Shown: positions 18,656 to 40,759 of the stretch, piece after piece
How the letters are laid out: every line of letters begins with the position of its first letter
Position numbering within the stretch: position 1 is the first letter of the stretch
Assembly: GCA_034417075.1 (NCBI GenBank)
Contig: DAOULU010000012.1
Location: 211,342 to 275,341, forward strand
Direction: 5' to 3'
Source: Anaerolineales bacterium
Lineage (GTDB): Bacteria > Chloroflexota > Anaerolineae > Anaerolineales > E44-bin32
Length of the DNA stretch: 64,000 bases
Program-made: the position numbers and the translations under genes
Notes under the pieces: model-generated
Database searches by the model: none
What the model was told of the DNA's origin: nothing
Seen by the model: only the letters and a program-made list of their open reading frames with translations

Positions 18656-19687
18656 TTAGGCGGCTGACTTTTTCGATTTCTCTTTGCCAGTATCCCCGGT
18701 GAAATTCGTGGGGACGATTCCATTCTTCTGTGCTTCGTCAAACGATATCAATGTGGGTGGCGTTTTTTCTTCCGTTTCGTCGGAAGATTTATCCTGGCTA
18801 TCTTCCTGCAGCATCTCTTCCAATTCATCGGAAATCGAATTTCGAAGTTGGGCTAGGATTTCCGATTGATCTTCGGAAATATCCAGGTCCATCATGATAT
18901 CGAGCAATTCTGCAATCGTCCGTTTCGCGCTGAACCATACCATCCCGATCGGTGTTTGGGCACGATCACGTTCAAACACGATGACCAGGAATAGATCCTT
19001 ACATAAGCTTGTGGAGAAAGTATTCCATTTCGAACCTTCGTTATACATTAGGTTAAAAACACAATCTTCCGACATATTGCGAGCCAGCTCGAAAAACGAA
19101 GCGTGTCCTGCGCCTATCAGTGCGGTGGTTATGGGGACATCGAATTCTTCAACGTATCCCGAATAAGTTATCGGTTTTCCCTCTGCGTTCGCCAGGATGA
19201 TGCAGTGTGCGGATATTTCTTGTCGAAGAGCATCCAACTTGAGGGTGATATTTTGTATTTTTTCCTTGATATCACACGCGATAGGCTCACGAGTTTCACT
19301 GCTCGTGCTGAGAACTTCTCGGGTGGCGTCGATCAAATCATCGATATCAATTGGCTTCGCCATGTAGCGGGCGACGTTGAGCTGTTTTGCTTTGGCCTTT
19401 ACGTCTTCGGAACCATATGCGGTCATGAGAATCATGCGGGTGTTGATCCCGTTGGAACGGATTTTTTCCATCAACTCGAGGCCGTCGACTTGCGGCATAC
19501 GTAGATCGGTGATCACCAGCTCATACACGATCTTCTGTATTTTATTCCAAGCAATGGAACCGTTATCGGCCGTGTCGACAACGTATCCCTCACCAAGGCC
19601 TTGAAGGGTATCAGCGATCGCGGTAGTAAACGTCAATTCGTCATCGACCACCAATACACGAGGAGGTTGTTCCTGGCGTTCACCCAT
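18656..19687 (-). CDS. response-regulator receiver domain fused to a Roadblock/LC7-like domain
   Basis: REC motifs VLVVDDE, ELVITDLRMPQVDG, MTAYG, AKP. The C-terminal half (CIILANAEGKPITYSG...LFLVIVFERD) resembles the Roadblock/LC7 (MglB-like) fold. ggagag RBS before the ATG. Confidence 0.8.
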   Translation of the reverse strand: MGERQEQPPRVLVVDDELTFTTAIADTLQGLGEGYVVDTADNGSIAWNKIQKIVYELVITDLRMPQVDGLELMEKIRSNGINTRMILMTAYGSEDVKAKAKQLNVARYMAKPIDIDDLIDATREVLSTSSETREPIACDIKEKIQNITLKLDALRQEISAHCIILANAEGKPITYSGYVEEFDVPITTALIGAGHASFFELARNMSEDCVFNLMYNEGSKWNTFSTSLCKDLFLVIVFERDRAQTPIGMVWFSAKRTIAELLDIMMDLDISEDQSEILAQLRNSISDELEEMLQEDSQDKSSDETEEKTPPTLISFDEAQKNGIVPTNFTGDTGKEKSKKSAA

Positions 19688-19846
19688 AGTATTACTCTCC
19701 AGAATCTGCCTGGTGAAAATCGCACATGAGTTCTTATCATCGTATCAAATGTTCGACCCTGTTTCGGCTTTCAGTTTCCTTACAGTCTCCTATAGGCGCG
19801 GTGACGCACTATTTTCGAATCGAACGGATGAATGATCCCTCTGGGA

Positions 19847-22800
19847 TTAAGCGTTGAGGATTTTCTGAATAGAGTTGGCAAGCGTTTTTTTATCGACAGG
19901 TTTTTGTACCCACGAAACGAGGTTGCTTTCGAGTAGCTCTCGGGTTCCTTCGTCCAACGGATAGCCGGTAATCAGTAGCATTTTAATCCCGGGTTGCTTT
20001 TCATTCAAAGTGCGGAAAAGTGTAGGTCCACTCAATCCCGGCATTATCACGTCACTCAGTACGAGGTCGACTTTTTCGCCTCCATTATCGAAATGGCGGA
20101 GGGCTTCTATCCCATCCGAGGCGGTGATTACGCGATAATTCAATGACTGCAGCACGCGGCTTAATGCATCGCGGACTTCAGATTCATCTTCGACCAGCAG
20201 AAGTGTCTCTAGATTTCCTTCCAGCGCATCGAAATCGTCGTCATCGAGAATGGTGGAAGCCTGTGTGTTCAACACGGGCAGGTAGATTGTGAAAGTCGTT
20301 CCCTTGCCCTTGCTGCTTTCAACGTCGATATATCCATCGTGCTGCTTTATGATGCCGTAGACTTGCGAAAGACCAAGCCCCGTACCCTGGCCTACGGGTT
20401 TGGTCGTAAAGAAGGGCTCGAAGATATGTGGTAGGACATCGGATGGAATGCCAAATCCGGTGTCGATAATCCGCAGACGCAACCAGGCCCCGGGTTTCAT
20501 GTCGCGATAGGGAGGTCTCTTGTTTGGATGTACAGTGAGTGTCGAAATATCAAAGGTCAACTGTCCGCCATCACTCATGGCATCTCTGGCGTTGATTGCC
20601 AGGTTGATCAGTACTTGTTGAAGTCGACCGGGGTCAGCACGAATCACGACCTGTTCTTCGCAAGGTTTATGTACGACGTGGATGTTTTCAGGAAGCATGC
20701 GATTGATGAGGGTGATGAAATCCTCGAAGAAGTCACGCAGGTTGACTTCAACGGGAGACATGACTCCTTTACGGCTGAAATCCAGAAATTGTTGTGTTAC
20801 AGAAGTGGCTCGTTGTGAAAGGCTGAGGATGGTCTTTACCCATTCCTGAGCTTCTGAACGTAGCGTGGGCTCTTCAAGCAGCATTTCACTATACAGCGTG
20901 ACTGGAACCAGGATGTTGTTGAAGTCGTGCGCGATTCCTGCAGCCATTTGACCCACCGCAGCAAGGCGTTCTTGCAGGTAGACTCGTCTTTGGGTTTCAC
21001 GTTCCTGGGTAACGTCTCGAATGACCAGAACCCATCCCTCAGATTGGACTCCGGTATCCAATGGGCGAGCGATAACTTCGTAAGATTGATTCTCTATTCC
21101 GATTTGTTGCCAAGGGTCCTGACTGGGAGCGTTGAAAATTTGCCGTATGGACACATCCCCGAGATGAGTCAGCGTATCGCCCAACTGGGCATTAGCCAAA
21201 GTCTTTAAATCATTCTTGCCCGCAGGATTGGCGAGTATAACATTTCCAGTCTGGTCGAGGAGTAACACACCCTCCGGTACGGTGTCGATTATTTGCTGAA
21301 CTTGACGCATTTGTTCTTGGATTCGTTCCAACAACCGGAGGCGTTGTGCAGTTGTACCCAATTGCTGGCCGACGGCTTCGGCTAGTGCGATCTCTTCGTC
21401 CGACCAGATACGTGGTACTTGGGCAGTGAGACTGATGCCACCGATGCGGCGATTTTCCTCCGCCACGATCTGTACGGTCAGCGAGGAACGCATGCCGTGT
21501 TCGATGAGAAGATCGGTGAAGGGTAACGGGGGATTCTCCGAATCGGTTGTGGCTTGCCAATCCTCAACAGCCAGTGTTCCAGGAATCTCCAACCCCTTGC
21601 TGGCTCGTATAGCTTCGGTGATACGATCTTTTATTTTGGAAGACATTCCCCGCGTCGCTACATATGGATGAATCCAGATACTTCCTACCTCCAGGCTTAG
21701 GGCATGAAGGGAGCGTTCTAAAGCAATTTCGAGAAGTTGGGGGAGGTCAGTCGCTGCATTTGCAGCGGCGATGATCGAGTTTAGCGCTTCAAAGTGTGTC
21801 GCACGGCGCGTTATTTCTTTTTCCGCTTTTTTACGCTTGTCGATGTCTCTGGAGATTCCCAACGTACCAGCTACGTTGCCATCTTTGTCGAGTAGAGGTA
21901 GTTTAGTCGTCGATACCCAAGCTTCACGACCGTCGGGCCAAATTTCCCGCTCTTCCTTGTCTGAAATTGTATCGCCGGTCTCGATCAATCGCTTCTCGTC
22001 CTCAAAAGCAACCTTTGCATGGTCCTCAGCAAAGAAATCGAAGTCCGTCTTTCCGATCGCCTGGTCTGGATCGGACAACTCGAATTTTTCTGCGAGTGCC
22101 GCGTTGATCTTGATGAACCGACTGTCTAGGTCTTTGAAGTAAATATAATTTGGGGAGTAGTCCATGAGAGATCGCAGGAGATGCTGTTCCCGAGATAGTG
22201 CTTCCTTTGTTTGATTTCTTTCCACGATCTCTTGCTGTAACTCTGTCGTTCTCTCTACGACTTGTTTTTCGATCGCAGCGTAGGCATTCCTGAGTGCATC
22301 TTCTTCTTTTTCCCGTTCCTGACGCAGCAGAGTCTTCTCGACGGCGCTGCTGATTTGCTCTTGTAGGATGTTGCACAATCGCCCTTCCGGGGGATCGACC
22401 TCGAACACGATTATCCCCAATTGCTTCTTTCCACGGAACAGCGTTTCGATGACAAATGAATATCGGCTTTTTCTTGAAGCGAGTTTTACATGGTTCAGAA
22501 GTTCGGTCGTGGGAAACGAATTTCGTTCCTTGAGTTTTGTACGTCCTTTTTCATCGAACGCCAAGATCATCTGCGAAACATCCATATTAACTCGCGGTTC
22601 GCCATCCGCCGGATCCCAGAACCGCTCGTATAGAGAAATGTAACAGCTTCTTATGCCTAATCGAGGCAATCCGAGATATAGGGCATTCGCCAATTCATTA
22701 AGATCGAAAGCAGTGTACAACGCATTGGTGATTTCAAGGAATTTCACGTACTGACGTTCGGTGATCGTCTTCTGATTAAGTCCGGCTTGTTGAAGTTTTT

Positions 22801-24103
22801 CGCTGATCAGCACACGGGCTTGTCCACAGATATCTTCCGCACGCACTAAGATCGACTCGTCGCTGTATTGCGTACGTGCATAGCGGCGCAGCGAGGACAC
22901 TGCGTTTTGCCAAATCCCGATTTCACCATCTCCTGCGATTGTGTCATTAATGAACTGTTCAAGGGTTTGTAGGAACTCTCCTGTCGAACCATTCCTGATC
23001 TCGGCGAGGAAAGTATTAAATAATGCTTCTACGCTTTCCTCCCCCAAATCTTCGATGGCAACATTTACGATGTTGACGAGCTCCAATACCGTCGTATTGG
23101 GTTGTGCGTTCGATTTACTCGAGAACTCCATCTCGGGATGATGCATCGTAGCTGCACGTTTTATTGCCGAGGATGAACACCCGCACGATTCGCGGATGAA
23201 GAGCGTAGTTGGAACGATCACGCGCTCGGGCACTTCCACGCCCTGCAGCATTTGAAGTGCCATGTTCACCGCTTTTCGGCACTGTTCTCGAAAAGGTTGA
23301 TGCACCGTCGTGAGAGGAGGAAGCGTGGCTTTGGTTGTAATTCGATCGTCGAAGCCCGCCACTGCGATGTCATTCGGGACGGATTGCCCATATTCTTTCA
23401 AGGTCCAAGTTACACCAAGCGCTATACTGTCGTTCGCGCCTACTACGGCTTCGAAGTGTTCATTGCGTTGATCGATGAACAAACGAATTGCATTTCCGCC
23501 TGTATATTCGTCCCATGCGCCTGGTGGTGAGATTAGATTGGGATTGATTTCAATCCCCGATTCTCGTAGGACGTCCTTATAAGCTTTAAACCTTTCTTCC
23601 GCACCAATCTGCGATTCCGGACCTCGAATGAAAGCGATGCGACGGAAACCATGATCTTGAACCAGATGAACGATGAGGTTGCGCATACCGAGGTAATCAT
23701 CGGTTGTCACGGTCGGTATTCCTGACACTTCATGACCAATGTTGATCATGGGTTTTGATTCGAACCTTCTACAGAATTCGATGAATGGTTCTTGTGAGAC
23801 GCAGTTGCTGATTGAAGCGTCCCATATTACCAGGGCGTCGATGATTGCGTCGTTCCCTATTGTGAAGATATCGCTGCCATCGGATCGATTTTCGCTCGAA
23901 TCACACAATTCAGCCCCTGCGATACAGATGAGGTTTGCGTTTTGTTCCTGAGCGGCTTTCGCGACAGCGCGCCACATCACCAAGCGATGCGGCTCAGCTA
24001 CGCATGACGTCAGGAAACCTATGGTTGGCCGTTTTCGAAATGCTTTCACCAAGTCATTCCCTAGTTTCTTAAGTTCCTTTATCTCCGCCGCTGACATCGC
24101 CAC
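19847..24103 (-). CDS. soluble hybrid sensor histidine kinase: LacI-type binding-protein-fold domain, GAF-like, PAS, GAF, PAS, HisKA, HATPase, REC
   Basis: 1418 aa with no TM or signal peptide. N-terminus resembles LacI/GalR ligand-binding cores (AVAGFDD...PPLTTVHQP...[10 protein letters not shown]). H-box [13 protein letters not shown]-box [19 protein letters not shown] / [13 protein letters not shown]. Confidence 0.9.
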
Positions 24104-24183
24104 TCCACATGAGTGGTCGTTTTGTCAGTTGTTAACGAATGACCGATGTCCCTTGGCAGGAGGACGTCTATCGTGGGGCTGCC

Positions 24184-27100
24184 TCATTCATTGTCTAGCG
24201 CATTACGAATCGCATCAGCCAAGAGATCCACGTCGTAAGGTTTGTGAATCACGGCGGCCACTCCAGCTTGCCGCAGATGATCCAGGTCCTCGGCGATGAT
24301 GTGGCCCGTAACCGCGACCGCCTTGATGGTAGACCCCAATTGACGCAATTCACGCAGTAATGCAGCTCCTCCGATCTCTGGCATAACGACGTCAGTAAAG
24401 AGCAGGTCGATATCACCGTTTGTTTTATAGACTTCCAATGCCTCCTTGCCGTTCGATGCAGATAGAACGTGGTACCCCAAGTCTTCCAGTATCTGCTGGC
24501 CGACTTCACGCATCTTTTCATTGTCCTCCACCAGTAGGATGGTTTCCCCGTTTCCCTGCGGGATGGATGAAAACACACCGTCCTGCGAAGACAGATGTTT
24601 TTCAGGTTTACACAGTGGTAGGTATACATGAAATGTCGTGCCCTTTCCCACCTCTGTATCCACATTGACTTGACCGTTATGCTGTTTCACGATTCCATAT
24701 ACTTGCGACAACCCCAGTCCGGTTCCCTTGCCGGTGTCTTTGGTCGTGAAGAAAGGTTCGAATATGTGCGGCAGCACTTCTGGTGGAATGCCGGTACCGG
24801 TGTCGGAAACGGAAATGCGGAGCCAGTTTCCCGGAACCATGCCCGCAGTCGGTGGATCTTCGTGTTCTTCGAGATGCAAACTGGACAACTTGATCCGCAG
24901 TGTCCCGCCCTTCGGCATTGCGTCGCGAGCGTTGACCACTAAATTCATAAGGACTTGCTGAATTCGAGTGGGGTCGGAATCGACGATGTACTCATCCGGA
25001 TCGATCTCCAGGGTAAGGGAGATATTTTCCGGGATCGTGCGCTTCAGAACTCGCACCGTTTCCTTTATGAACGGCCCAAGATCCACCAAACTCGTCTCGA
25101 TCGGCGATCGGCGACTGAAATCCAAGATTTGCTGCACCAGGTTGGCAGCATGCTTCGATTCTTTGAGGATCGTCTCGAGTGACTTTTTGATATCTTCGTT
25201 CACTTCATGTTTACGTAGCGGTCGTTGCGCGTAAAGCATGATCGTGGTTAACATGTTGTTGAAGTCGTGTGCAATCCCACCGGCCAACTGTCCAACCGCT
25301 GCGAGTCTTTCTTGCTGGTGGATGCGTTTTTGAGTCTCACGTTCTTTGGTCACATCTCGCAAGACCAGGACCCAACCCTTGGATTGCGTTCCTTTTTCTA
25401 ATTCCTTCGCGATGGCTTCAAAGAACCGCTCTTTGAATATAATCCGGCACCAAGGATTCTTCGGATCACGATCCAATACATCTGTAAGAGGGCGATTGCC
25501 GAGTTGTGAGAGGGTATCGCCAAATCCCATTTCAGCAAGAAGTTCGAGGTCCCGTTCTCCTGTCGGATTGGCAAGCAGGATCAATCCATCTTTATCGAGC
25601 AGGATAACTCCTTCGGGGACCGTGTCGATTATTTGCTGTACCTGGCGCATTTGTTCCTGAATCCGTTCCAACAGGCGCAGACGTTCTGTTGCAGTCCCTA
25701 ATTGTTGGCCGACGGCAATCACGAGATCGATTTCCTCTTTCGGCCACGAGCGTGGCTGCATGGCCGAGAGAATCAGCCCGCCGATGAAGATTCCATTCTC
25801 GGCCATGATGGGCGCAACGATTGAGGCGCCAACACCCTGCCGAGTCATGATCGAGGAAATCGGTGCGAGTGATTCGTTCTCGGATTCATGTGACCAATCA
25901 TCGATGGCGATCGGATTCGTGATCCGTGTTCCTTCGTGGGTCAGAATGTCGCGTGTGACGCTGTCGACAATGCCCTCCGGAATGCCGCGCGTGACGACGT
26001 TGGGTGGAATCCAGATACTTCCGATCTCCAAGTCGATGGCTCGGAGCGTATGGTCAAGGGCGGTTTCCAGTAATTGATCGAGATCCGCTTCTGTTGCAGC
26101 GGCGGATATGATCGTGTTCAACGCTTCTACCTGAACTGAACGGCGACGGATCTTCTCATCCGCTTCCCTTAGTTCCTGAAAAGCATTTGCTCCTTGGATT
26201 GCGGCGCTGATTTGGGTGGACAAAGTCTCGCACATTTCTGTATCGAGGTTATGCATCCCAAGAACCAAATACCCAAAGAGTTCGTCGCGGAAGTAGAGCG
26301 AATTGACCACGAGTTCATGTCTACGGTCGTTTAGTAGGAATCCTTCTGGAAATAGATTAACGGCCGGGAATGATTGTCTGACGTCATCGGCCGTGTCTAT
26401 TCTTCCTTCTATGTTGTAGGACAGCATTAGCCTGGCGTTTTTTCTGCTTTGATTTGGGCCATCAAAGAGGCATATAACACAACTATGAATTCCGATGCTT
26501 GGAAAATGATCCCAAATCGTTTCCATTAAGTTCGTCATGTCGTACGTGGTCAGCAATGCTTGGTTCGTATAACGTAATGGCTCAGCGATGTGCTCCTCTT
26601 GCAGTCTCAAATAGGAAGTGGATAGGGCTCCAATTTTACCCAGCAGTAAATTTGCTCGCCGCCAGAGCTCCGCCGTCCGTCTGGAGGATTCAATATCCTT
26701 GACGAGTGGCATAGTGAGCTGATTGAGAGTCGACATCGCATATTGCCACCGATATGCGTCGGTTCCATCAATCAAGCCGCGACGTAATATCTTCTCCAGC
26801 AATATTATGAATTCATCGGGATCGCTTTGATTGGTAAGCGCGTTGAAAAAGATGTCAACCAATTCCGATGTGTTTCTCGTGATCAAGTCTTCTTGTGAAT
26901 AAGACGGGTTATATGCTTCGACGACCTTTTGGACAACATAATCTCGCTGTGCGGTATGATCGTCAGACATCAGAAGCACTTTATCTTCTTGTAGAGAGCC
27001 TTCGGATTTCGGTTCCGGCTCACATGCACAACTCAGGCGCCGGACCAAAGTTGTTGGCATCAATTCACAATCCGGCACTTCTCCGCCTTCCAAAATCGTT

Positions 27101-31000: not shown

Positions 31001-32315
31001 GTTGGACCGTCTCACCGATCAACACACGAGATTGATGGACGAGTTCCTCAATTCGTTCCGTTGTTGTTTTATCTTTAAATTGCAGGAGTGAAAAATGACG
31101 AAGTAAAGAAACCACTTTTTGCCATTCGTTGATTTCAGTCTCTACCGATACCGTCTCTTCGAAACATTGAGCGAGGTCCTTTAGGAAATTGCCGGAACCA
31201 TTATTTTCGATATCCGTAATGAAAGATTCGAATAGCCGCTTGCTCCAGTTTGTGATCGATCCTTCGACCGTAGAGTCAACGATTTGTGCGATCGCTTTAA
31301 TTCCATCTTCGGGATTCGTATTTGATGTATCGGACTCGACAGGATCGATAATCGTTTTTGTGATCGCACGTCCAACGGCAGATGATGTACAGCCGCATGA
31401 TTGACGGATGCATAGTTCTGTGGGGATATTGACGAGATCTGGGACAACGCCACCCTGCAATTTGGTTAGTACGATGTTAACTGCATGTCTGCACTGCTCT
31501 TTTAAATGTTGGCGGACTGTGGATAATGGTGGAGTAGCAGCTTTTGCAATTGCTTGGCCATCAAATCCAGCTATGGCTACATCACCAGGGACTTCTAGTC
31601 CCCGGTTTCTCAATGCCCACATCGCAGCGAGGGCAATCGAGTCGTTTACACTTACAATCGCGTCAAAATCTACATTTCGCTCATCGACGAATAGTCGTAC
31701 GGCATCTTCGCCTGTAGCTGCATCCCAACTACCTGGCTGCGAGAGTAGATCTAGGTCTAGTTGGATGTTGGATTCTGAAAGCGCATCTTTATATGCCTGG
31801 AATCTCGTTTCTGCTCCGATCTGTCCTTCAGGTCCCCGGATGAAAGCGATACGTCGATAGCCATGATCTACGATTAGATGACGTACCAAATTGTGCATGC
31901 CGACGTAGTTGTCGGAAAGGACCGTCGGGATGCCATCGACCTGCTGGCCGATGCTGACAATCGGTTTGGATATGAACTGGTGGCAAAATTCACGAAACGT
32001 GTTCTGTGGGACAGAAGTTCCAAGTCTTGCTCCATAGATTATGATGGCGTCGATGACATCTTCGCTCGCAGCTCGAAATAAGGAACCGATTGGATTGGTG
32101 TTCCCATGCGATTCATCGATTAAATCGACCGCGATCGTCACAACATTGGCGTTTCGCTCATGCGCAGCTTCAACAACCGCAGTCCACATGGCCAAACCGA
32201 AATGGTCTTCCATTGCGGCAGTGAGGAAGGCAATGGTAGGCAGCGAGATTGAAGATTGGTTTTTGTCGCCATTGTTAGCTGGACGGTCTTGTTTCATATT
32301 TGGTGCCACTAACAT
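28050..32315 (-). CDS. soluble hybrid sensor histidine kinase paralog: LacI-type domain, GAF-like, PAS, GAF, PAS, HisKA, HATPase, REC
   Basis: 1421 aa, co-linear with 19847..24103. H-box [23 protein letters not shown] / [13 protein letters not shown]. Confidence 0.9.
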
Positions 32316-32337: not shown

Positions 32338-32787
32338 CTATTCCTCATCCAGTGCTTGTCGAACTGCGACGGCTAAGATATCAACGTCGTATGGTTTGTG
32401 AATGATCGTTTTAACGCCGGCTTCCTTTAATTGATCCAAATCCTCAGCCAATATGTGGCCCGTCACTGCAAGCGCTTTCACCTGCGACCCAGATTGGCGT
32501 ATCTTTTGAAGCATAGCTGCGCCGCCAACTTCAGGCATCACGACGTCAGTAAATATCAGATCGATATCCTCTGACTGGTTAAAAACTTTAAGTGCTTCTA
32601 GACCGTTCGATGCACAAAGAACTTGATATCCTAAATCCTCTAAAATCTGCATTCCGACTTCACGCATCAAGTCATTGTCCTCCACAAACAAGATGGTTTC
32701 CCCTTTTCCTTGTGGGACGCCTCTAATTGTTTCTTCTTCTTGAAGATTGAAATCAGGCTTTTCCATAGAAAGTGGAGGTTCACTCAT
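32338..32787 (-). CDS. stand-alone receiver (CheY-like) domain protein, homologous to the C-terminus of the adjacent hybrid kinases
   Basis: [21 protein letters not shown] and HKPYDVDILAVAVRQALDEE closely match the REC of 24184..27972. ATG 32787 overlaps the stop of the upstream transposase-like ORF by 8 nt; the ORF track starts at TTG 32829. Confidence 0.75.
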   Translation of the reverse strand: MSEPPLSMEKPDFNLQEEETIRGVPQGKGETILFVEDNDLMREVGMQILEDLGYQVLCASNGLEALKVFNQSEDIDLIFTDVVMPEVGGAAMLQKIRQSGSQVKALAVTGHILAEDLDQLKEAGVKTIIHKPYDVDILAVAVRQALDEE

Positions 32788-34018
32788 TAAAAAATCCTTT
32801 TCCCTTGTAAACCCACCAGGCGTGAGCAATCATTGATAAAGTAAAATGACGATGCCAGCTGTTCCAGCGACGGACTCCATAGTCGTCCATCTTAAAAAAT
32901 GTGCAAGCTTCTGCTACCATTTGTTTTAAACTTCCAAGTGCATTGGTAATCGTTGCGAGATTTGTCAATGACGAGTCTTCTGTGGCGTTCGATATAAAGT
33001 ACGCAGTTTCACAGCGTTGACTTACCGATCGGCGCGCTAGCAGCCACACTTCATGGGAGGTGTCCCCATCAGGGTGTTCAACGACGCGATCTGATGCCCA
33101 ATCGAAGACACAAAGTTCATCGTCATTGGTGCCGCCAATCAAGCGTTTCCATTTTTGCTCGGGCCAAGAAGAGACGATTTTGAAAATTGTGGGTTCGACA
33201 GATCCATTTTCCCCTTTGTCCGATATTTGCGAATCGTCATCGGGATCGGTCTGCCGGTAAGTAGAATCGGTTTTTCGGCCGGGAAGAATGTAATTCATAC
33301 CTGTCGCCTGGATGACGATGCGCAAATTCGGATCGTCGCAAAAAGGTTCCGCACCAACAATCCACTGCATCGGTGTTCCAATGGCATGAACCGACTGAAG
33401 CATATCCAGGGTGAGATCGGATTTGCTTCGATATTCAATGTTCTCGGGAATTTTCGCTTCTCGTCTTCGCTTGTGATCTTCAGCCCATTCCACGGGGAGA
33501 TAGAGACGACGGTCGAGGAATGTTGAACCTTTGGCGGAGGTGTAGCCTAAGAATAAGCAGACCTGGCAATTCTGTTCTCTGTTGATTTTGTGGTTGAATT
33601 GTGGCTGCACACCGACGGTCTTTGCCCCTTTTTTCGGAAAATATGTAACTCCGATGAGACAAATGCCATCCTCGTCCCCTAATTCTGATACGATGAATTC
33701 CTGAAGACGAGAATGAACGGCTTCATCGTCCCATTGCGCACCAAAAAACAATCTTTGGGCGGCTTTGGATGATTTATTATTGTTGGAAGTTAATGGATTT
33801 CTTCCGCGAGACTTGCGCTCCGCATTTTGGAGTAGAGACTGTACATAATGCAGTGCTTGTTGTCGCGTTTCGGTCCGCGCGAAATATTCATCGAATTGAT
33901 CGTGGAAAAATTCTTCGAACTCGGACCATTCACACGATCGGTCGACCGTTGAAAGAGAATTGATACCAACTTCTGAAATACTTCCGCCTCTTCCGTTCAT
34001 CACCCAAATACTTTTCAC
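32780..34018 (-). CDS. IS701-family (DDE) transposase-like protein, possibly catalytically degenerate
   Basis: Co-linear with the IS701 consensus as I recall it: FARTETRQQALHYVQSLL..ERK, FPKKGAKTVGVQ, NCQVCLFLGY, LYLPVEWAEDHKRRREAKIP, WNSWHRHFTLSMIAHAW. No terminal inverted repeats found. Only 27-45 nt separate it from the upstream gene. Confidence 0.7.
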   Translation of the reverse strand: MKSIWVMNGRGGSISEVGINSLSTVDRSCEWSEFEEFFHDQFDEYFARTETRQQALHYVQSLLQNAERKSRGRNPLTSNNNKSSKAAQRLFFGAQWDDEAVHSRLQEFIVSELGDEDGICLIGVTYFPKKGAKTVGVQPQFNHKINREQNCQVCLFLGYTSAKGSTFLDRRLYLPVEWAEDHKRRREAKIPENIEYRSKSDLTLDMLQSVHAIGTPMQWIVGAEPFCDDPNLRIVIQATGMNYILPGRKTDSTYRQTDPDDDSQISDKGENGSVEPTIFKIVSSWPEQKWKRLIGGTNDDELCVFDWASDRVVEHPDGDTSHEVWLLARRSVSQRCETAYFISNATEDSSLTNLATITNALGSLKQMVAEACTFFKMDDYGVRRWNSWHRHFTLSMIAHAWWVYKGKGFFNE

Positions 34019-34045: not shown

Positions 34046-34438
34046 TCAAGATAGGAATTCAACGATTTGTTTAATGGCCTGATTCGTCATGCGTCGGTAG
34101 CTGTGGTCTGGTGGTGCAATAACCGCAAGAATCATTTCCTCGCCGCCGGCTTTTAAATATCGACAAACCAAACGCATCCGATTGGAATCAAGAATGGAAA
34201 ATTCATCAATTTCTGCGAGCGGAAATTGATCACGTACCTCTTTGCTCATTCTTTTAAGCATCGCAATCATGGCTGCGGCTTTATCAGTATCGAAATTCGC
34301 AGGTACGGTTGCGATCGGCAACCCTTCACCGCTGGCAAGAACGGCGGTCTCAAATTGACCTTGTTCGTGCAAGGTGAGCAGCAATTCGTCAAGCGTTACT
34401 GGTTGGTACGTGGCCGAATCAACTTGTTGATAATTCAT
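34046..34438 (-). CDS. Roadblock/LC7 (MglB-like) domain protein
   Basis: 130 aa, single-domain size, with FETAVLASGEGLPIATV...MRLVCRYLKAGGEEMILAVIAP, the typical Roadblock pattern. Confidence 0.8.
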   Translation of the reverse strand: MNYQQVDSATYQPVTLDELLLTLHEQGQFETAVLASGEGLPIATVPANFDTDKAAAMIAMLKRMSKEVRDQFPLAEIDEFSILDSNRMRLVCRYLKAGGEEMILAVIAPPDHSYRRMTNQAIKQIVEFLS

Positions 34439-34471: not shown

Positions 34472-34963
34472 CTAATTTTCGCCAAACAGACTCTCAATTT
34501 CCGTGGTCAATGCTTGCCCAAATTCATCATCGACAATGCGTCCCTGTTCCTTTTGTACGCGTTCGAACTCCGCAGCAAGCGGGAGCAAGTTCTTCACGGC
34601 TTGGCCTGTGAAAAGGCGTACAAGACCGATCTGGACTTTTGTGCTGAATAAGACGACGAGCAAAAAACTACCGGCAACGTTCGAAAGATAGATATTCTGA
34701 TCGTCCCCTTCGTGGAACATGAGTTTGAAGGGATTTTCCTCACCGATCTGGCGGGCAATCTCTGCCGTGGCAGCCATGTTGCTGGCGGTTAAAGCAGAAA
34801 GGATCACTGGATCAAAGGTCTTCGTAAACCCTTGTTGGCAGATCAGCTGTCCGCTGATGTCTGCCAATAAGACGCAGCAGGCTTGGGTTTTCTCCAGCAA
34901 TTGCGATAAGATCTTGATGATCTTCGTCATCAGAGCTGGGGGTATGACTACTTTATCTGACAT
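34472..34963 (-). CDS. Roadblock/LC7 (MglB-like) domain protein
   Basis: ATG 34963 is preceded by a gggagg RBS. ACCVLLADISGQLICQQG...FLLVVLFSTKVQIGLV fits the Roadblock pattern. The longer ORF to 35086 is unlikely. Confidence 0.8.
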   Translation of the reverse strand: MSDKVVIPPALMTKIIKILSQLLEKTQACCVLLADISGQLICQQGFTKTFDPVILSALTASNMAATAEIARQIGEENPFKLMFHEGDDQNIYLSNVAGSFLLVVLFSTKVQIGLVRLFTGQAVKNLLPLAAEFERVQKEQGRIVDDEFGQALTTEIESLFGEN

Positions 34964-35144: not shown

Positions 35145-35927
35145 TTATGTTCTTCTCCGCAATCGTTCGATTGCAGCTTTCAGGCTGACTCTCATTCGCT
35201 CAATCGATCGAGCAAGATCCTCCATCTCGTCGCCAGTGTCGGCAACAATGGGGCTGTCTAAATCGCCTCGACTGATGCTCTCGGCTGCCGAGCTGAGGTA
35301 TAAAGCTGCACTCGTCAAGCCACGACTGATCGTCAGGGCGCTCAAAATGCCGATAATGATGCCAATGGCAACGACGATAATTGCGATTCTCATGATGTTG
35401 GTGATCTGACTCCCAATAACGTTGAGAAGTTGGTTCTGCTCGACTTCAACCACAGAGAGTAATTCATCCATCGCAGGTCTTACAATTTGAATGAAGAAAA
35501 TATCGGCTTCATCGATGTCAAGTAATGTGCTGGTAATGTCATTCGGATTAGATTCATAGGCCGATTGTGCATTCTCAAGATATTGGTGGTAGATCGCGAC
35601 CGCTTGTTCGATGTCCGATAAATAATCTGAATATTGAGCGCTTGAATTTTCGACTATGTTTGTCCACTGTTGGTTGTATTCTTCTCGAAGATCAGCGAGC
35701 GCTGTTTCTTCTCCGGTTGCAATATGATGACTCAATGATGTCCGTTCCATCAGCAAGAGTCTCATACCTCTTTCGACAAATTCAATGGTTTGCAGCGCTG
35801 TGATTGAATCTCGCGTTGCGTTGGTTAGCGTGTTTAATCCGAGGAAGACCCCAACCCCGATCAAGACTAGCAAGACCAGAGGGATTCCGAGACCAATTCC
35901 CAATTTTCTCCCGATGGTCAATCTCAT
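35145..35927 (-). CDS. membrane protein: two TM helices, helical extracytoplasmic domain and HAMP domain, with no output domain
   Basis: TM1 [25 protein letters not shown]2 [27 protein letters not shown]-like [50 protein letters not shown]. The ORF ends ~15 aa later. Confidence 0.8.
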
Positions 35928-36012
35928 CTTTATTTAGATCTCCTTAATCCTTGTCGTAGAACGGACTCTTACCCTTATACCCGATATGGCAGACCGCTGC
36001 GTTTCAACTGTG

Positions 36013-36801
36013 TTAAATACTTCGCAACAAATCTAGCATGATCTGTTGAAAACGCATGCGTTGATCTGAGTCCTCAATTTCCGTGCTCACCTGTTCCACC
36101 AGGTCAGCAACTTTGTTTCGCGGAAAGGATTCTCTGGTTTCATTCAAGTCGGCGATTTTTTCATCAATTATCACCGGCCCCATTGGGCCGATCACTTCAA
36201 TGAATTCGTCATTAAGTCGATCGAAAAACTCGTTGTCGATGGCAGTTATGGGCAACGACTTCGATTCTTCGACGATCTCTAGCAGTCCCGTCTTTACAAG
36301 CCCGGCAAGGACGTTTGCGGCTTTAAAGTCTTCCCATCCCAAGGATTCGGCGATGTCGTCGATTGTGCGTACTCCGTTTACCTGCGCCAAGACCTTCCAT
36401 TCGTCCGGTTCCAAGTTGATCGCCCCCGTCGTTCCTTGGGCAAGGTTGAAAACCGCCTCCATCGATGGAATGACGTCCTTAATTTCGGACCATCCCTTGA
36501 TTCGTTTTTCCCCTTCACTGAGGAGCACCTCTGTTGACGTCGAAATGGACTCCTCTGGTGGTTCAATACCGCTCACGAAATTGAAGTTCCCATGCAGCCA
36601 TGATAGTAGGAAATAGAAAGCTTCTTCTCCCATTTGTGTCCCGGTGATGACATGAACGATGTTGCCATTCCGTAAGAAAATCTCACCGGTATTGCTCCCA
36701 TCCGATAAATCAAGTTTTCCCGTTTGACGCCCTGATTTTAATAATTGAATGATATTCGGGAGTGACAATTGGTTTAGATCACCCCGTAGAGCTTCTGCCA
36801 T
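36013..36801 (-). CDS. PATAN (DUF4388) domain protein
   Basis: N-terminus LRGDLNQLSLPNIIQLLKSGRQTGKLDLSDGSNTGEIFLRNGNIVHVITGTQMGEEAFYFLLSWLHGNFNF is the DUF4388/PATAN signature. ATG 36801 overlaps the upstream stop (TGATG). Confidence 0.8.
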   Translation of the reverse strand: MAEALRGDLNQLSLPNIIQLLKSGRQTGKLDLSDGSNTGEIFLRNGNIVHVITGTQMGEEAFYFLLSWLHGNFNFVSGIEPPEESISTSTEVLLSEGEKRIKGWSEIKDVIPSMEAVFNLAQGTTGAINLEPDEWKVLAQVNGVRTIDDIAESLGWEDFKAANVLAGLVKTGLLEIVEESKSLPITAIDNEFFDRLNDEFIEVIGPMGPVIIDEKIADLNETRESFPRNKVADLVEQVSTEIEDSDQRMRFQQIMLDLLRSI

Positions 36802-37238: not shown

Positions 37239-37247
37239 GTTGATCTC

Positions 37248-38258: not shown

Positions 38259-38351
38259 TGTGTTTCTCCTATGAGAGCTAATCTTTGTCGAAACGGTTGC
38301 CTTCATTCGACGATTGCTCGAATAGTAGCATCCGGATTTTTCCTCAACGCA

Positions 38352-39062
38352 TCAATCTTTATCCTTTCGATGCCTTCTCTTCGTGACTTGTATTGAATTG
38401 GCTGTGGCACTTACTGGGATTTTTGGATCCATGGACAAAACCGTAAGCTGTTTTTCGGACGGAAAGACGATCATTCTCCAACCCTCGCCGGACATGGTGA
38501 TTTGCTGAAGCGCTCCGGCGTTTAAAAGGATACCTAATTCTTCTGCGCGTCTCCCGGTAAAAGCAGTGAGAGCCGCCGTCGCTTTGGGATCCTTCGTTGA
38601 CTCGAAACCTATGATGTCACCGTATTTCGATGCAACGAGTGCACTTTCGATGCCATTGATGCGTGTGAAATCTTTTACCATCCGTACAGCAGCTTCATGT
38701 TCGGCTTTCTTTTTTTCCCGATCGGCATCTTCATCGTCACTGCTTTTCATCAGGGTCTGCTCGTCGATGCGTCGCAGCCCTTCCAACAGCAAATGGGACC
38801 AGTTGGTATCTACGCTGCGTTTCGGCGCGCGTATGTCTTTCGTTAATTCGAACGTCCCATCTTCCCAGGTTAGAAGTTCGAAGATCACGTCTTCTCCTTC
38901 TTGCGAACCCAGCGTCATGTGGACGATGTCCCCCTCATCGAAAAACAAGGTTCCCTCTTGATCCCGATGTTTCACAAGGAGACGTGCTTGATTCATCTCA
39001 TTGCAATTAATGCTGATCAGACTGGATAGACTGATGTCAATTAAATTCCCCTGAACTGCCAT
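38352..39062 (-). CDS. PATAN (DUF4388) domain fused to a Roadblock/LC7-like domain
   Basis: N-terminus QGNLIDISLSSLISINCNEMNQARLLVKHRDQEGTLFFDEGDIVHMTLGSQEGEDVIFELLTWEDGTFEL (PATAN). C-terminus INGIESALVASKYGDIIGFES...WRMIVFPSEKQLTVLSM (Roadblock-like). ATG 39062 avoids overlap with the GTPase gene. Confidence 0.75.
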   Translation of the reverse strand: MAVQGNLIDISLSSLISINCNEMNQARLLVKHRDQEGTLFFDEGDIVHMTLGSQEGEDVIFELLTWEDGTFELTKDIRAPKRSVDTNWSHLLLEGLRRIDEQTLMKSSDDEDADREKKKAEHEAAVRMVKDFTRINGIESALVASKYGDIIGFESTKDPKATAALTAFTGRRAEELGILLNAGALQQITMSGEGWRMIVFPSEKQLTVLSMDPKIPVSATANSIQVTKRRHRKDKD

Positions 39063-39088
39063 AAGCGATTGCCTTTGTTTCCTATGAT

Positions 39089-39661
39089 TTAAAGTTGTCG
39101 GACCACGAGATTTATGATGGCTTTCAAAGTATCGAATACGCCATGTCCCTTGATCGCGGACGAGCCCATACAAGGGACGCCATTGACATTCATCTGCGTC
39201 TTTAAATCATCGGGTTTGATCACGTCGGGAAGGTCCTGCTTGTTGAATTGAATAACGCAGGGAAATGAATCGATCGGCGTCCCTAGCTGCATCAAGTAGT
39301 TTTCGAGCGCTTTGAGATCATTGACGTTATCGGTTAGACGATCACGCTGCGAATCGGCAACGAATACGACTCCATCGGATCCTTGAAGGACGAGTTTTCG
39401 GCTTGCTTCGTAATACACCTGCCCGGGTACGGTATACAGACTGAATTTTGGTTTCAGACCATTGATACTCCCGAGTTCTAATTGCATGAAATCGAAGAAT
39501 ATCGTTCGATCTTCACGCGTTTTCAAAGAAACCAATTCCCCGCGCGATTTGGGGTTGATGTGTCCGTGGATGAATTGTAGGTTTGTCGTTTTTCCACTGC
39601 GAGCAGGGCCATAATATACAATCTTGATATGTAGCTCGCCCAGCTTCTGGTTTATGTACAT
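39089..39661 (-). CDS. mglA: MglA-family Ras-like small GTPase
   Basis: 190 aa, co-linear with Myxococcus/Thermus MglA as I recall them: KIVYYGPARSGKTTNLQ (P-loop), EDRTIFFDF (intrinsic Arg), LYTVPGQVYY (switch II with Thr in place of Asp), NKQD (G4). ggagga RBS. Confidence 0.92.
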   Translation of the reverse strand: MYINQKLGELHIKIVYYGPARSGKTTNLQFIHGHINPKSRGELVSLKTREDRTIFFDFMQLELGSINGLKPKFSLYTVPGQVYYEASRKLVLQGSDGVVFVADSQRDRLTDNVNDLKALENYLMQLGTPIDSFPCVIQFNKQDLPDVIKPDDLKTQMNVNGVPCMGSSAIKGHGVFDTLKAIINLVVRQL

Positions 39662-39757
39662 CTTGGTAGTTCCTCCATCATAAGCTTAAATATACTTTAA
39701 TTCACCGACACTTCAAACTCAACAAATAAGCATGAACCTCATTCTTTGAAAACACCG

Positions 39758-40759
39758 CTATTTCGCCTTTTTAGTTTCTTTCAACTCAGATGGAACAAGC
39801 CCGGCATTCATTGCGTCTTCAAAGTTGATTAATTCTCCTGTACCGATATCCAGCAGGATCTCGTCGTCTAGCAATTGATCGAGTTCGGCATTCATTGCTT
39901 CCGCCAGGTTGTCGGAATCGATCTCCGCATCCTTCTGATCGGCGATCAGTGGAGCCAGTTCGGCGGCCGTTTGTTTGGTGTAATGCCATACCGCACCGGG
40001 TTTGGTTTCCGAACCGAAGATTACCGCTAAAAGGAAGTCTCCATCCACATCGTGCGCATAGATGTTGTATTCCGGCCCTTCATGGAAACTGGATTTAAAA
40101 ACCGAATCGCTTTTCAGGATTCTGGCCAATTCGGATGAAGCTGCGAAATTCGCAGCTACAAGTGCACTGATGTTTGATGTATCCATTCCGCTCGTCACAC
40201 CCGCTGTTTCAACCATATATCCATTGGCACTCAACAGTAATACGCATGAGGCTCCGGAGTCGGCCTGTAATTTATTCAATTTTTCACGCAGCGGTTCGCC
40301 AAGATCTCGCATCTCGGGCTGTTCATCGCTATTCATCGAGCCGATTGCTTTTTCAACGATCTCTCGAATCTGCGTCATGCTGAAGGGTTTATCGATAAAG
40401 CCTTCGAGATTCAATTCCTCGACGGATGAACGCAACTCCTTATTTCCATACGCCGTAATAAGGACTACTTTCGTATCCGGGGAGATTTCACGAACGGCTT
40501 TTGCTAAATCCAAGCCGTTCATGGTCGGCATCATATAGTCGGTTATGATCAGTTCGTAGGAACCGCTTTTAACCTTTTCAAGGGCAGCCGCGCCGCTATT
40601 TGCCGTATCGACAGTATACTCATCGCAAAGTTTGCTCAAGTAATTTGTCAAGGCTTTCAAGATTTCATGCTCATCGTCTACGATGAGCAAATGCCTGGTA
40701 TCTGCATCTTGAGTCGTCAAGTCGATTCTCCCAATACGCTTACCTTCCTGGATTGCCAA
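39758..40759 (-). CDS. response-regulator receiver domain fused to a Roadblock/LC7-like domain
   Basis: REC motifs LLIVDDEHE, ELIITDYMMPTMNG, ITAYG, DKP. C-terminal half ASCVLLLSANGYMVETAG...DFLLAVIFGSETKPGAV is Roadblock-like. TTG start at 40759, or TTG 40720 with a gggaga RBS. Confidence 0.8.
   Translation of the reverse strand: MAIQEGKRIGRIDLTTQDADTRHLLIVDDEHEILKALTNYLSKLCDEYTVDTANSGAAALEKVKSGSYELIITDYMMPTMNGLDLAKAVREISPDTKVVLITAYGNKELRSSVEELNLEGFIDKPFSMTQIREIVEKAIGSMNSDEQPEMRDLGEPLREKLNKLQADSGASCVLLLSANGYMVETAGVTSGMDTSNISALVAANFAASSELARILKSDSVFKSSFHEGPEYNIYAHDVDGDFLLAVIFGSETKPGAVWHYTKQTAAELAPLIADQKDAEIDSDNLAEAMNAELDQLLDDEILLDIGTGELINFEDAMNAGLVPSELKETKKAK

Follow-up and report, generated by a model that had tools for sequence, protein, structure and literature searches.

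A conserved MglA/MglB small-GTPase module joined to LacI-sensor hybrid kinases in an Anaerolineales bacterium

We analysed a 64,000-nucleotide stretch of a contig from an uncultured Anaerolineales bacterium (hereafter the window) and found that its 15 consecutive minus-strand genes between positions 40759 and 18656 form a composite locus made of two blocks. The nine genes of block A (40759-34046) make up a self-contained MglA/MglB small-GTPase module that is ancient and widely conserved; they encode, in order, a REC-MglB-like protein, MglA, a PATAN-Roadblock protein, a double-PATAN protein, a Roadblock-like protein, a PATAN-DUF8082 protein, a 2TM-HAMP protein, MglB and a further Roadblock protein. 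The six genes of block B (34000-18656) encode an IS701-like protein, a stand-alone receiver (REC), three hybrid kinases with LacI-type sensors and a second REC-MglB-like protein. In our judgement the two blocks probably act as one composite signalling operon, with block A as the MglA/MglB switch and the kinases of block B as an added input. The locus is a known kind of switch and not a new kind of system: phospho-control of an MglA/MglB switch is familiar from the Frz/RomR logic of Myxococcus, and here receivers and kinases lie beside MglA and MglB. All genes and sites given below by coordinates are on the minus strand.

The 190-aa GTPase (39089..39661), an Arf/Ras-type GTPase in Pfam, was assigned by PDB matches and motif alignment. 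The PDB search returned MglA of M. xanthus (6hjh, E 1.5e-56) and of T. thermophilus (3t12, E 8e-53); identity to the Myxococcus protein, counted from the alignment, is about 57%, and Anaerolineae homologues that are 63-67% identical carry the name gliding-motility protein MglA. The alignment contains LYTVPGQ (the TxxGQ motif, in which Thr replaces Asp, with the catalytic Gln), the arginine of DRT (the putative arginine finger) and NKQD. By these motifs the enzyme is a canonical group-1 MglA with its own predicted arginine finger. The 163-aa Roadblock-fold protein encoded at 34472..34963 aligns with M. xanthus MglB (PDB 6izw_B, E 6.7e-19) over residues 6-162, C-terminal tail included. It matches Pfam Robl_LC7 (1.9e-10) and the NCBIfam MglB equivalog (4e-16, under that model's cut-off), and its dN/dS is 0.03-0.05. 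From its homology it is a true MglB, the predicted Roadblock-fold partner of MglA. A preliminary description of this DNA had called the output of the system unknown, which goes too far with an orthodox group-1 MglA and an MglB orthologue present. By analogy, the pairing of a canonical MglA with a true MglB suggests cell polarity or surface motility as the likely output.

Several further Roadblock-type and PATAN-type proteins accompany this pair. RoblC, the second stand-alone Roadblock protein (130 aa, 34046..34438; Pfam Robl_LC7, 2.9e-7), has a dN/dS of 0.03-0.04, and its type is found directly after mglA in other Anaerolineae. The 145-aa Roadblock-like protein (P145, 36801..37238) has no Pfam match as a single sequence; 7 of the 18 members of its family match Pfam Robl_LC7, the family profile matches the Robl_LC7 protein 7f8m in the PDB (E 9e-5), and hhalign against RoblC gives P 1e-5. 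PATAN1 (236 aa, 38352..39062) combines a PATAN domain (Pfam DUF4388, 2.7e-19) with a Roadblock-like C-terminal half, for which hhalign gives P 3.7e-8 against the RoblC family and 2.3e-8 against the 145-aa family. The P values of these Roadblock-like calls (1e-5 to 2e-8) compare with 0.12-0.27 for negative controls. PATAN2 (262 aa, 36013..36801; Pfam DUF4388, 2.9e-22) carries a C-terminal DUF8082 (PF26309, from precomputed annotation), and its start overlaps the stop of the P145 gene in a TGATG at 36801 that had been reported before and is present in the sequence read directly.

The 336-aa protein (P336, 37248..38258) contains an internal repeat (P 8.9e-9) followed by a helical C-terminal domain. 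Pfam reports DUF2226 (8.6e-7) and weakly DUF4388, so that DUF4388/PATAN is matched twice strongly and once weakly over the cluster; in profile-profile comparison the two repeats match PATAN with P 1e-6 and 5e-7. Its family is large and uniform in length (333-340 aa), its AF2 model has a mean pLDDT of 85 with no PDB fold match or structural analogue, and a dN/dS of 0.03-0.05 places its gene among those under the strongest constraint in the module. The membrane protein (260 aa, 35145..35927; Pfam HAMP, 1.3e-9) is predicted to have two transmembrane segments, TM1 and TM2, separated by roughly 130 aa on the outside and followed by HAMP; its hydrophobic segments are at residues 3-37 and 170-206, and it has neither an output domain nor a kinase domain. 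The earlier count of six Roadblock-type and four PATAN-type domains is thereby borne out by Pfam, hhalign and BLASTP, and every earlier domain assignment (Roadblock, PATAN, MglA, HAMP, LacI-type, PAS, GAF, HisKA, HATPase_c and REC) was recovered by profile searches.

The three hybrid histidine kinases of block B comprise 1421 aa (kinase 1, 28050..32315), 1262 aa (kinase 2, 24184..27972) and 1418 aa (kinase 3, 19847..24103), and Pfam finds in them Peripla_BP_1/3, PAS and/or GAF, HisKA, HATPase_c and REC domains. In kinase 1 the order is LacI-type sensor, a region of about 340 aa without assignment, PAS, GAF, PAS, HisKA, HATPase and REC, with the H-box IAHDFNN. Kinase 3 has the same architecture and is 45% identical to kinase 1 over its full length; kinase 2, a paralogue of both, has the order LacI-type sensor, GAF, PAS, HisKA, HATPase, REC. 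No transmembrane segment and no LacI HTH is predicted in the kinases, and PDB searches with their N-terminal parts match regulatory domains of the LacI family (E down to 8.8e-34), in agreement with their earlier description as soluble kinases with a LacI-type ligand-binding domain.

REC-Roadblock fusions stand at both ends of the cluster, as first proposed from the sequence. Regulator A (333 aa, 39758..40759) consists of a CheY-like receiver (residues 22-139; Pfam Response_reg, 2.5e-26) and an MglB-type Roadblock domain (residues 162-274; Robl_LC7, 2.2e-7); its PDB matches are CheY-type receivers and M. xanthus MglB (1.1e-13), and BLASTP relates it to the MglB of the cluster (1.3e-23). Regulator B (343 aa, 18656..19687; Pfam Response_reg, 4e-25) is a full-length paralogue of regulator A (BLASTP, 9e-45) whose C-terminus is MglB-like (4e-15 to the cluster's MglB); its orthologues are confined to the close clade, beyond which identity falls to 42% or less. 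All six receiver domains have the acid pocket, Asp, Thr and Lys, and look competent for phosphorylation. The stand-alone receiver (149 aa, 32338..32787; Pfam Response_reg, 3.9e-22) shares 64% identity with the C-terminal 145 residues of kinase 2 and 50% with the corresponding part of kinase 1, and looks like a severed kinase tail.

The first gene of block B (32780..34000, 406 aa) matches Pfam DDE_5 (1.1e-38), and its product is about 31% (30-32%) identical to annotated IS701 transposases, which would fit an ordinary insertion sequence that arrived recently, may still be active and interrupts the operon. We consider this extremely unlikely and reject the gene as a mobile element. The catalytic D, D and E are all replaced (DDT to GVT, GDE to GAE, iEqc to LKQM), terminal inverted repeats were not found and there is no room for any, and the gene is single-copy in every sequence examined, its stop overlapping the REC start. 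It is also syntenic in five species, with a dN/dS of 0.11-0.13 at a dS of 1.3-1.6. Judged by these features, it is a fixed, domesticated and selected transposase derivative, predicted to be catalytically dead, that marks the junction of the blocks.

The nine-gene order of block A is kept in the distant Anaerolineae L092 and L093, whose accessory proteins are just 28-53% identical. PATAN1, P336, (P145), PATAN2, HAMP and MglB lie beside MglA in about 60 loci of another phylum, Calditrichota, with a kinase and a receiver before them, and kinase-plus-receiver pairs also adjoin such a module in other Anaerolineae. In two further lineages (L099 and L100) it is the first PATAN protein that carries the receiver. 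A receiver is therefore a constant of the module, and what it is fused to (PATAN or an MglB-like domain) suggests its targets. The whole 15-gene order recurs in four related species, or five when the species of the window is counted, which argues that the arrangement is not due to chance. Block B is limited to these closest species: in L092, the sister lineage and nearest outgroup, block A ends after its ninth gene and is followed by opposite-strand metabolic genes. The 22-kb supercluster of the preliminary description is correct as co-directional packing; as one unit of common descent it fails, because the next relative lacks the kinase block. We propose that the ancestor of this genus-level clade acquired block B.

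All block A genes and the measured block B genes are under purifying selection (dN/dS 0.03-0.29), the latter being DDE_5, REC and residues 1 to ~1080 of kinase 1, without its HATPase and REC domains. By dS, the window groups with L008 and L005 in block A; for DDE_5, REC and kinase 1, measured against the window, it is equidistant from all relatives, and the L005 and L010 copies of DDE_5 and REC are close to each other. This part of block B therefore diverges differently from block A, and the adjacency could be historical. An IS701 insertion and a rearrangement might have put sugar-sensing kinases beside an MglA operon in one lineage, leaving two functionally separate blocks, with kinases that signal to other targets and an incidental co-orientation. 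The state of L092, the transposase-derived gene and severed kinase tail exactly at the junction and the lack of an Hpt gene in the cluster and the scanned flanking ORFs all favour such a history; a hybrid kinase normally depends on an Hpt protein for signalling to a separate receiver. Yet block B ends in the paralogue of regulator A, for which no role apart from MglA is obvious, kinase-plus-receiver pairs recur beside the same module elsewhere, the junction is tight and without a terminator-like site, and the arrangement is both kept in the four relatives and, where measured, under purifying selection. We regard functional separation as rather unlikely.

Descriptions of cultured Anaerolineae are mostly of non-motile filaments, and conservon-like G-protein signalling, serving development, stress or gene expression in such a filament and not the polarity of a motility machine, is a second alternative, which we judge quite unlikely. 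In its favour, Streptomyces cvnABCD likewise combines a kinase, a Roadblock protein and a small GTPase (PMC4316618), and PATAN2 has a weak winged-helix (TrmB) match in Pfam (E 0.0014). Motility genes are absent nearby, as the preliminary description had stated for the window: a Pfam scan of 24 flanking ORFs and the precomputed Pfam annotation of further flanking genes showed no pilus, motility, chemotaxis or Hpt domain, and a Calditrichia chromosome examined downstream of its module showed no pilus, gliding, chemotaxis or Hpt gene, so that gene context does not support the output suggested above. However, CvnD is a group-2 GTPase whereas the locus encodes a group-1 MglA with an arginine finger (PMC4316618). 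The locus has neither a CvnC-like gene nor a CvnA-type membrane HAMP-kinase, its HAMP protein being kinase-free and its kinases soluble, and its MglB is closest to motility-type MglB. The PATAN domains tested bind pilus motor parts: a Synechocystis PATAN output domain binds PilB1 and PilC, in a study that also notes PATAN genes as neighbours of mglA/mglB (bioRxiv 10.1101/2021.06.11.447907).

What the analysis establishes for the locus is its gene content, homology, conservation and selection; in the composite operon that we favour, each protein-protein, phosphotransfer and output step is an inference. MglA would be the switch with its own arginine finger, and the 163-aa MglB its Roadblock-fold GAP. 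The kinases may sense cytoplasmic small molecules and control how far the REC-MglB-like proteins are phosphorylated, a phosphotransfer that we purely infer. Phosphorylation could then alter whether the MglB-like domain of these proteins acts on, or competes for, MglA, shifting the MglA-GTP/GDP balance or the location of MglA. The state of MglA might be passed on to a membrane machine by the HAMP protein together with the PATAN proteins, of which some are held on Roadblock platforms. By analogy with Myxococcus MglA and with PATAN proteins of cyanobacteria, the most likely machines would be type IV pili or some other apparatus of surface motility or polarity. Linkage of MglA with PATAN and fusions of Response_reg to Robl_LC7 have been reported (Wuichet and Sogaard-Andersen, 2015, PMC4316618, citing Makarova et al., 2006), and our literature search found no experimental work characterising the MglA/PATAN/Roadblock module. 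The view that this is not a characterised system holds to that extent, but the wiring is recognisable as an MglA/MglB switch.

The ORF listing and a separate, independent set of gene calls for the same contig agree with the earlier statement that every ORF from 40759 to 18656 is on the minus strand, and the coordinates reproduce the gaps of 9 nt (37239-37247), 26 nt (39063-39088) and 22 nt (32316-32337). The 27-nt gap at 34019-34045 exists if the IS701-like ORF starts at GTG 34018; gene callers place the start at ATG 34000, which leaves 45 nt to the RoblC gene. The genes of block B all point the same way, with gaps of 22-159 nt between them, and a strong terminator-like hairpin comes only after the last of them (18586..18608, with a T-run, 48 nt past the last stop codon). 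Its stem of 10 pairs, 6 of them G-C, is the longest among the sites found in 18000-37900, where the total count of terminator-like sites was not above shuffles and no comparable minus-strand site lies in the cluster's intergenic gaps. Promoter-like sites in 37900-41400 were likewise not above shuffles in number. The better of the two minus-strand sites upstream of the first gene, a consensus match only, is TTTGCA-17-TATAAT (40928..40956) in the 347-nt divergent intergenic region, which matches the consensus at 10 of 12 positions and is equal-best of the five sites in the scan.

The cluster comprises 15 consecutive genes, all on the minus strand, running from 40759 down to 18656 both in the ORF list and in independent gene calls on the identical public contig. 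This co-directional arrangement is as the preliminary description had it, and a chance run of same-strand ORFs was rejected. Nine genes (block A, 40759-34046) encode REC-MglB-like A, MglA, PATAN1, the 336-aa protein P336, the 145-aa protein P145, PATAN2, a HAMP protein, MglB and the 130-aa Roadblock protein RoblC; the remaining six (block B, 34000-18656) encode an IS701-like (DDE_5) protein, a 149-aa receiver, three hybrid kinases and REC-MglB-like B. The TGATG stop/start overlap reported at 36801 can be read in the sequence, and the reported gaps of 9, 26 and 22 nt agree with the gene coordinates. The 27-nt gap placed before the IS701-like ORF holds for a GTG start at 34018, whereas the ATG at 34000 preferred by gene callers gives 45 nt. 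Pfam searches recovered the expected domains, namely REC with Robl_LC7, an Arf/Ras-type GTPase, DUF4388 (PATAN), HAMP, two Robl_LC7 proteins, DDE_5 and a receiver, together with Peripla_BP_1/3, PAS/GAF, HisKA, HATPase_c and REC in the three proteins of 1262-1421 aa. Because the assignments that Pfam missed were recovered by separate homology tests (BLASTP, hhalign and PDB profile search), the earlier count of six Roadblock-type and four PATAN-type domains stands. The observation itself is confirmed; the interpretation first placed on it is only partly supported, as set out below.

A terminator-like hairpin, whose 10-pair stem is the longest in the region, lies 48 nt 3' of the last gene, and a consensus scan places a promoter-like site with 10/12 matches 5' of the first gene; counts of promoter-like and terminator-like sites show no excess over shuffles. 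An Rfam scan of the window returned no RNA family. The longest gap of block A (181 nt, 34964-35144) separates the HAMP gene from mglB; an internal promoter or a small gene may lie there. An alternative ATG at 35086, 5' of the mglB start, would lengthen MglB by 41 residues, and a 62-aa ORF is called in the corresponding gap of L005, the locus of a close-clade species.

The cluster GTPase matches MglA of Myxococcus xanthus (E 1.5e-56) and of Thermus thermophilus (8e-53; residues 2-190). Its G3 motif has Thr for Asp (TxxGQ), with LYTVPGQ aligned to LYTVPGQ of M. xanthus, and keeps the catalytic Gln. The residues T-R-E-D-R-T align with T-E-T-D-R-T of M. xanthus MglA, in which we take the arginine finger to be Arg53, and NKQD is also present. 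Judged by these motifs, the enzyme is an orthodox group-1 MglA. It has thousands of homologues; those 63-67% identical are named gliding-motility protein MglA and are found in Anaerolineae. The 163-aa Roadblock protein matches M. xanthus MglB (6izw_B, E 6.7e-19) over aa 6-162, including the C-terminal extension, as well as Pfam Robl_LC7 (1.9e-10). This homology identifies it as the MglB orthologue, with predicted GAP activity on MglA. Its score of 59.5 bits against the NCBIfam equivalog NF052242 is under the curated cut-off of 200 bits, which limits only the equivalog claim because the model is built on Thermus-type MglB. The canonical mglB lies six genes 3' of mglA, and the gene immediately 5' of mglA encodes the REC-fused MglB-like domain; a 'coupled' MglB is operationally defined in PMC4316618 as one encoded at most four genes from mglA.

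For the accessory proteins, family alignments made from related loci were compared by hhalign, in which unrelated controls gave P 0.12-0.27. The P145 family matches the RoblC family (P 1e-5), and the C-terminal half of PATAN1 matches both the RoblC family (P 4e-8) and the P145 family (P 2e-8). The top PDB matches of the P145 family profile are Roadblock proteins (7f8m, E 9e-5), and 7 of its 18 members touch Pfam Robl_LC7; these profile searches replaced a single-sequence AF2 model of P145, which at pLDDT 38 was unusable. P336 contains two copies of a PATAN-like unit (P 1e-6 and 5e-7 against PATAN), the internal repeat itself scoring P 9e-9. It belongs to a large family (homologues P0241-P0360) of 333-340 aa and 44-58% identity, annotated as hypothetical only. 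Its AF2 model (pLDDT 85) has two beta-rich repeats and a helical domain; a fold search of the model against the PDB found nothing at E <= 0.001, and a likeness to sliding clamps at the top TM-score of 0.13 was treated as noise. The HAMP protein has two TM segments flanking a loop of ~130 aa, with HAMP as its last domain. None of the accessory proteins of the module is covered by an NCBIfam model.

The product of the last gene is a full-length paralogue of that of the first (BLASTP 9e-45). The C-termini of REC-MglB-like A and B match the cluster MglB (BLASTP 1e-23 and 4e-15, respectively), and A also matches the solved M. xanthus MglB in a PDB search (1e-13). Orthologues of B are at least 70% identical within the close clade and at most 42% identical outside it. 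The acid pocket, the phospho-acceptor Asp, the Thr and the Lys are conserved in each of the six receiver domains, as aligned to E. coli CheY. At the related loci L099 and L100, a receiver is fused to the first of the module's PATAN proteins. Since the receiver thus stands alone in some lineages and is joined to PATAN or to an MglB-like domain in others, domain fusion points to these proteins as the probable entry point of the phospho-signal.

Kinases 1-3 have the H-box IAHDFNN and contain neither a TM segment nor a LacI HTH. In PDB searches, their first ~310 residues hit the regulatory domains of LacI-family proteins (E down to 9e-34), so that their description as soluble kinases with a LacI-type ligand-binding domain proved correct. 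No Hpt domain was found in Pfam scans of the 15 cluster proteins and 24 flanking ORFs, again as first described; in the same scans, the HATPase domain of kinase 2 gave a weak, sub-threshold HPTransfase match. The stated lack of motility genes likewise agrees with Pfam, which found no pilus or motility genes among the flanking ORFs and no CheA, CheW or MCP genes linked to the module in the window.

We then compared the cluster with related loci. The genomes nearest to the window are Anaerolineales MAGs. Four related species, with MglA 88-94% identical, have the same gene order from the first REC-MglB-like gene through kinase 1, and in two of them the far end agrees as well, with kinases 1, 2 and 3, the second REC-MglB-like gene and, in the flank, GNAT and MaoC genes as in the window. 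L092 and L093 are the next relatives; their MglA is 71-73% and their accessory proteins are 28-53% identical to those of the window, and the gene order of block A is the same; all nine genes are seen in L092 only, the L093 contig stopping within the seventh (HAMP) gene. The L092 module reads REC-MglB-like, MglA, PATAN, 336-aa, ~150-aa, PATAN-DUF8082, HAMP, Robl164 and Robl140, after which come metabolic genes on the opposite strand. Among the compared loci, block B in all its parts (DDE_5, small REC, kinase array and second REC-MglB-like gene) is restricted to the close clade. As to whether the kinase array, the REC-Roadblock genes and mglA travel together, they do so in the close clade but not in L092, which has no kinase array. 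The cluster is a composite of an ancient module and a lineage-specific kinase array, with a dead transposase at the seam.

Farther afield, about 60 Calditrichota loci encode a kinase, a receiver (or a hybrid kinase), PATAN1, the 336-aa protein, in some cases the 145-aa protein, PATAN2, HAMP, MglB and MglA, and other Anaerolineae have kinase and receiver genes followed by REC-MglB-like, MglA, RoblC and PATAN. The association with a kinase and a receiver is a constant feature of the module, and the MglA/PATAN/Roadblock/HAMP/receiver operon is kept across at least two phyla. The genes downstream of one Calditrichia module encode MFS, peptidase, ExbB/ExbD/TonB and cell-wall functions; none is a pilus, motility or Hpt gene. 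In L023, the stretch 14958-17197, ~4.4 kb downstream from a Calditrichia module, encodes an ExbB/MotA-type protein, two proteins of ExbD type and TonB. AglRQS, the gliding motor of Myxococcus, belongs to the same protein families, and the L023 genes may equally be an ordinary TonB system. After the L099 module (13368-20000), a second and a third small-GTPase-sized gene, a PilZ-domain protein and six more Roadblock genes occur on both strands, a much larger Roadblock/GTPase expansion. At L028, 10001-13400, an Anaerolineae MAG has two tandem mglA paralogues (57% and 51% identical to the window MglA), each followed by a RoblC-type gene, with a kinase gene between the two mglA.

Divergence across 18656-40759 was compared with four loci of close-clade species (L002, L005, L008 and L010) and two other related loci (L088 and L090). 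The window is nearest to L008, then to L005, then to L002 and L010, in block A by dS and in kinase 3 and the last gene by protein identity. It is equidistant from all relatives in DDE_5, REC and kinase 1 by dS and in kinase 2 by protein identity. Between L005 and L010, dS is 0.3 for DDE_5 and REC, 0.9 for HAMP and 1.3-1.7 for RoblC, P336 and PATAN2. Such mosaic divergence could result from recombination among related species or from chimeric MAG assembly.

The gene at 32780-34000 (minus strand) encodes a 406-aa DDE_5 protein with whole-length homology to IS701 transposases (Pfam 1.1e-38; ~31% identity to annotated ones by tblastn), and its earlier label as an IS701-like ORF holds in this respect. 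Transposase homology would also be expected of an active insertion sequence. The catalytic triad is lost in all five orthologues: DDT/DET is replaced by GVT, WVTGDE by WIVGAE or WIVGGE, and the Glu of iEqcF by K, N or D. No inverted repeats surround the ORF, and its stop codon overlaps the start of the next gene (REC). In the window and the compared loci, the gene is found only as syntenic single copies, in the same operon position in five species. Its dN/dS of 0.11-0.13, at dS 1.3-1.6, is similar to that of neighbouring genes and reflects purifying selection. On these grounds, an active insertion sequence is ruled out, and the ORF is a domesticated gene rather than a mobile element. Among 1.84 billion representative proteins, the nearest non-orthologues (P0362 and P0363) are 44% identical and likewise lack the catalytic Glu; P0362 has a 160-aa N-terminal extension. 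A literature search found no report of bacterial IS701 domestication, and the gene represents a rare bacterial case of a DDE transposase gene under selection after loss of catalysis. This selected, catalytically dead transposase, placed where the ancient module meets the lineage-specific kinase array, is an unexpected extra. The stand-alone 149-aa receiver (32338-32787, minus strand) shares 64% identity with kinase 2 over the final 145 residues of the latter, the linker among them. Because it comes next after the IS701-like gene and resembles the C-terminus of kinase 2, it may be the tail of a fourth kinase severed by an ancient transposase insertion.

The polarity module of M. xanthus consists of MglA, MglB, MglC and RomR/RomX and is under the control of FrzX and FrzZ, response regulators of the Frz system that gate it. 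In common with it, the cluster has a group-1 MglA that carries an intrinsic arginine finger, an MglB orthologue of the Roadblock fold, extra Roadblock paralogues (cf. MglC) and receiver-domain proteins at the level of the GTPase and its GAP; phosphorylation as a gate on the switch would be a further shared feature. Unlike in Myxococcus, the receiver is fused straight to an MglB-like domain, twice, the operon encodes four PATAN domains and a HAMP membrane protein, and the input would come from classical or hybrid histidine kinases rather than through a Frz pathway of CheA type. RomR-, RomX- and SgmX-like genes were not recognized here, the host is a member of the Anaerolineales, and the window has no motility genes. 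By analogy, the locus probably works like the Myxococcus MglA/MglB module under response-regulator control, with direct REC-MglB fusions and PATAN proteins in place of Frz- and RomR/RomX-type genes.

A second candidate, the Streptomyces conservon (CvnA kinase, CvnB Roadblock, CvnC and CvnD GTPase), also brings together a kinase, a Roadblock protein and an MglA-family GTPase. The GTPase is of group 1 here, whereas CvnD belongs to group 2 and has no arginine finger; none of the 15 cluster proteins has a Pfam match to the CvnC-type family; and the cluster has receivers and PATAN domains and no membrane HAMP-kinase with an LPxR tail, the HAMP protein ending after HAMP and the kinases being without TM segments. 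We therefore rejected a Streptomyces-type conservon because the GTPase subgroup is wrong and both CvnC and a CvnA-type kinase are missing. The cyanobacterial PatA-type (PATAN-REC) regulators PixG, PixE and LsiR bind the type IV pilus motor and take their input from chemotaxis-like Tax systems, which include no GTPase (bioRxiv 10.1101/2021.06.11.447907). As in these regulators, PATAN is likely an output or adaptor domain here, and the PATAN-REC fusion recurs in L099 and L100; in contrast, the PATAN domains of the window are fused to a Roadblock-like domain, to DUF8082 or to a second PATAN, and none to REC.

To call this wiring unrecognized is an overstatement, since MglA-PATAN neighbourhoods and Response_reg-Robl_LC7 fusions are already recorded. 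Wuichet & Sogaard-Andersen, 2015 (PMC4316618) place group 1 and 5 mglA 'occasionally' near PATAN genes, list five REC-MglB-like fusions and cite Makarova et al., 2006 for MglA/MglB-PATAN neighbourhoods. As far as the accessible text extends, the comparative-genomics surveys do not describe the fixed gene order, P336, P145-type proteins, the HAMP partner or the constant kinase/receiver pair. Our literature search found no account of the fixed operon, of the P336 family or of experiments on the operon.

Homology, gene order, conservation and selection are observed, and we infer every step of the following mechanism. MglA would be the switch and MglB its GAP. The REC-MglB-like proteins would serve as phosphorylation-controlled MglB paralogues, acting as GAP, co-GAP or competitor. 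Phosphoryl groups would come from the kinases, which in the genus of the window would respond to cytoplasmic ligands of the LacI-type domains, and the PATAN proteins and the HAMP membrane protein would couple the state of MglA to a membrane machine. By analogy with MglA of Myxococcus, which has a role in polarity and motility, and with PATAN of Synechocystis, the output could be motility or a pilus. Against the motility and phosphorelay readings stand the absence of pilus, motility and Hpt genes in the window and after the Calditrichia module, and the fact that hybrid kinases usually need an Hpt protein. In Synechocystis, PATAN by itself is enough to bind PilB1 and PilC and to reverse phototaxis, and the paper showing this also remarks that mglA and mglB neighbour PATAN genes (bioRxiv 10.1101/2021.06.11.447907).

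A more ambitious joint reading appears doubtful to us in its entirety. Block A would be a complete, portable MglA polarity switch that works unlike that of Myxococcus, with the receiver wired straight into an MglB-type domain (or into PATAN in other lineages), such that phosphorylation converts a GAP-like protein directly without Frz, RomR or RomX. The PATAN and Roadblock proteins, P336 included, would link MglA to its membrane machine as the adaptors that have long been looked for. In the genus, the switch would have been rewired to three cytoplasmic metabolite-sensing kinases, and the dead transposase would have been kept as a working signalling subunit.

MglA/MglB is the model for bacterial Ras-like spatial switches, with a mechanism known nearly entirely from Myxococcus, where the regulators (RomR/X/Y, MglC and Frz) are scattered over the genome. 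Here, one operon encodes the GTPase, the GAP, extra Roadblock platforms, four PATAN domains, a membrane HAMP protein and a receiver. It offers a defined parts list for how phosphorylation may gate an MglB-type domain and allows a test of whether PATAN domains serve generally as adaptors that connect small GTPases with the motors of pili or motility, and the genus-specific additions show how an MglA module acquires new inputs.

Elsewhere in the window, a lone 172-aa ORF at 43289-43807 (plus strand) carries a precomputed Pfam match to eCIS_core, the contractile-injection-system core family, with no injection-system genes beside it. Two further kinase genes lie outside the cluster on the minus strand, one for a soluble GAF-PAS-HisKA-HATPase kinase (54539-56104) and one for a Ser/Thr protein kinase adjoining FtsH (61436-62479).
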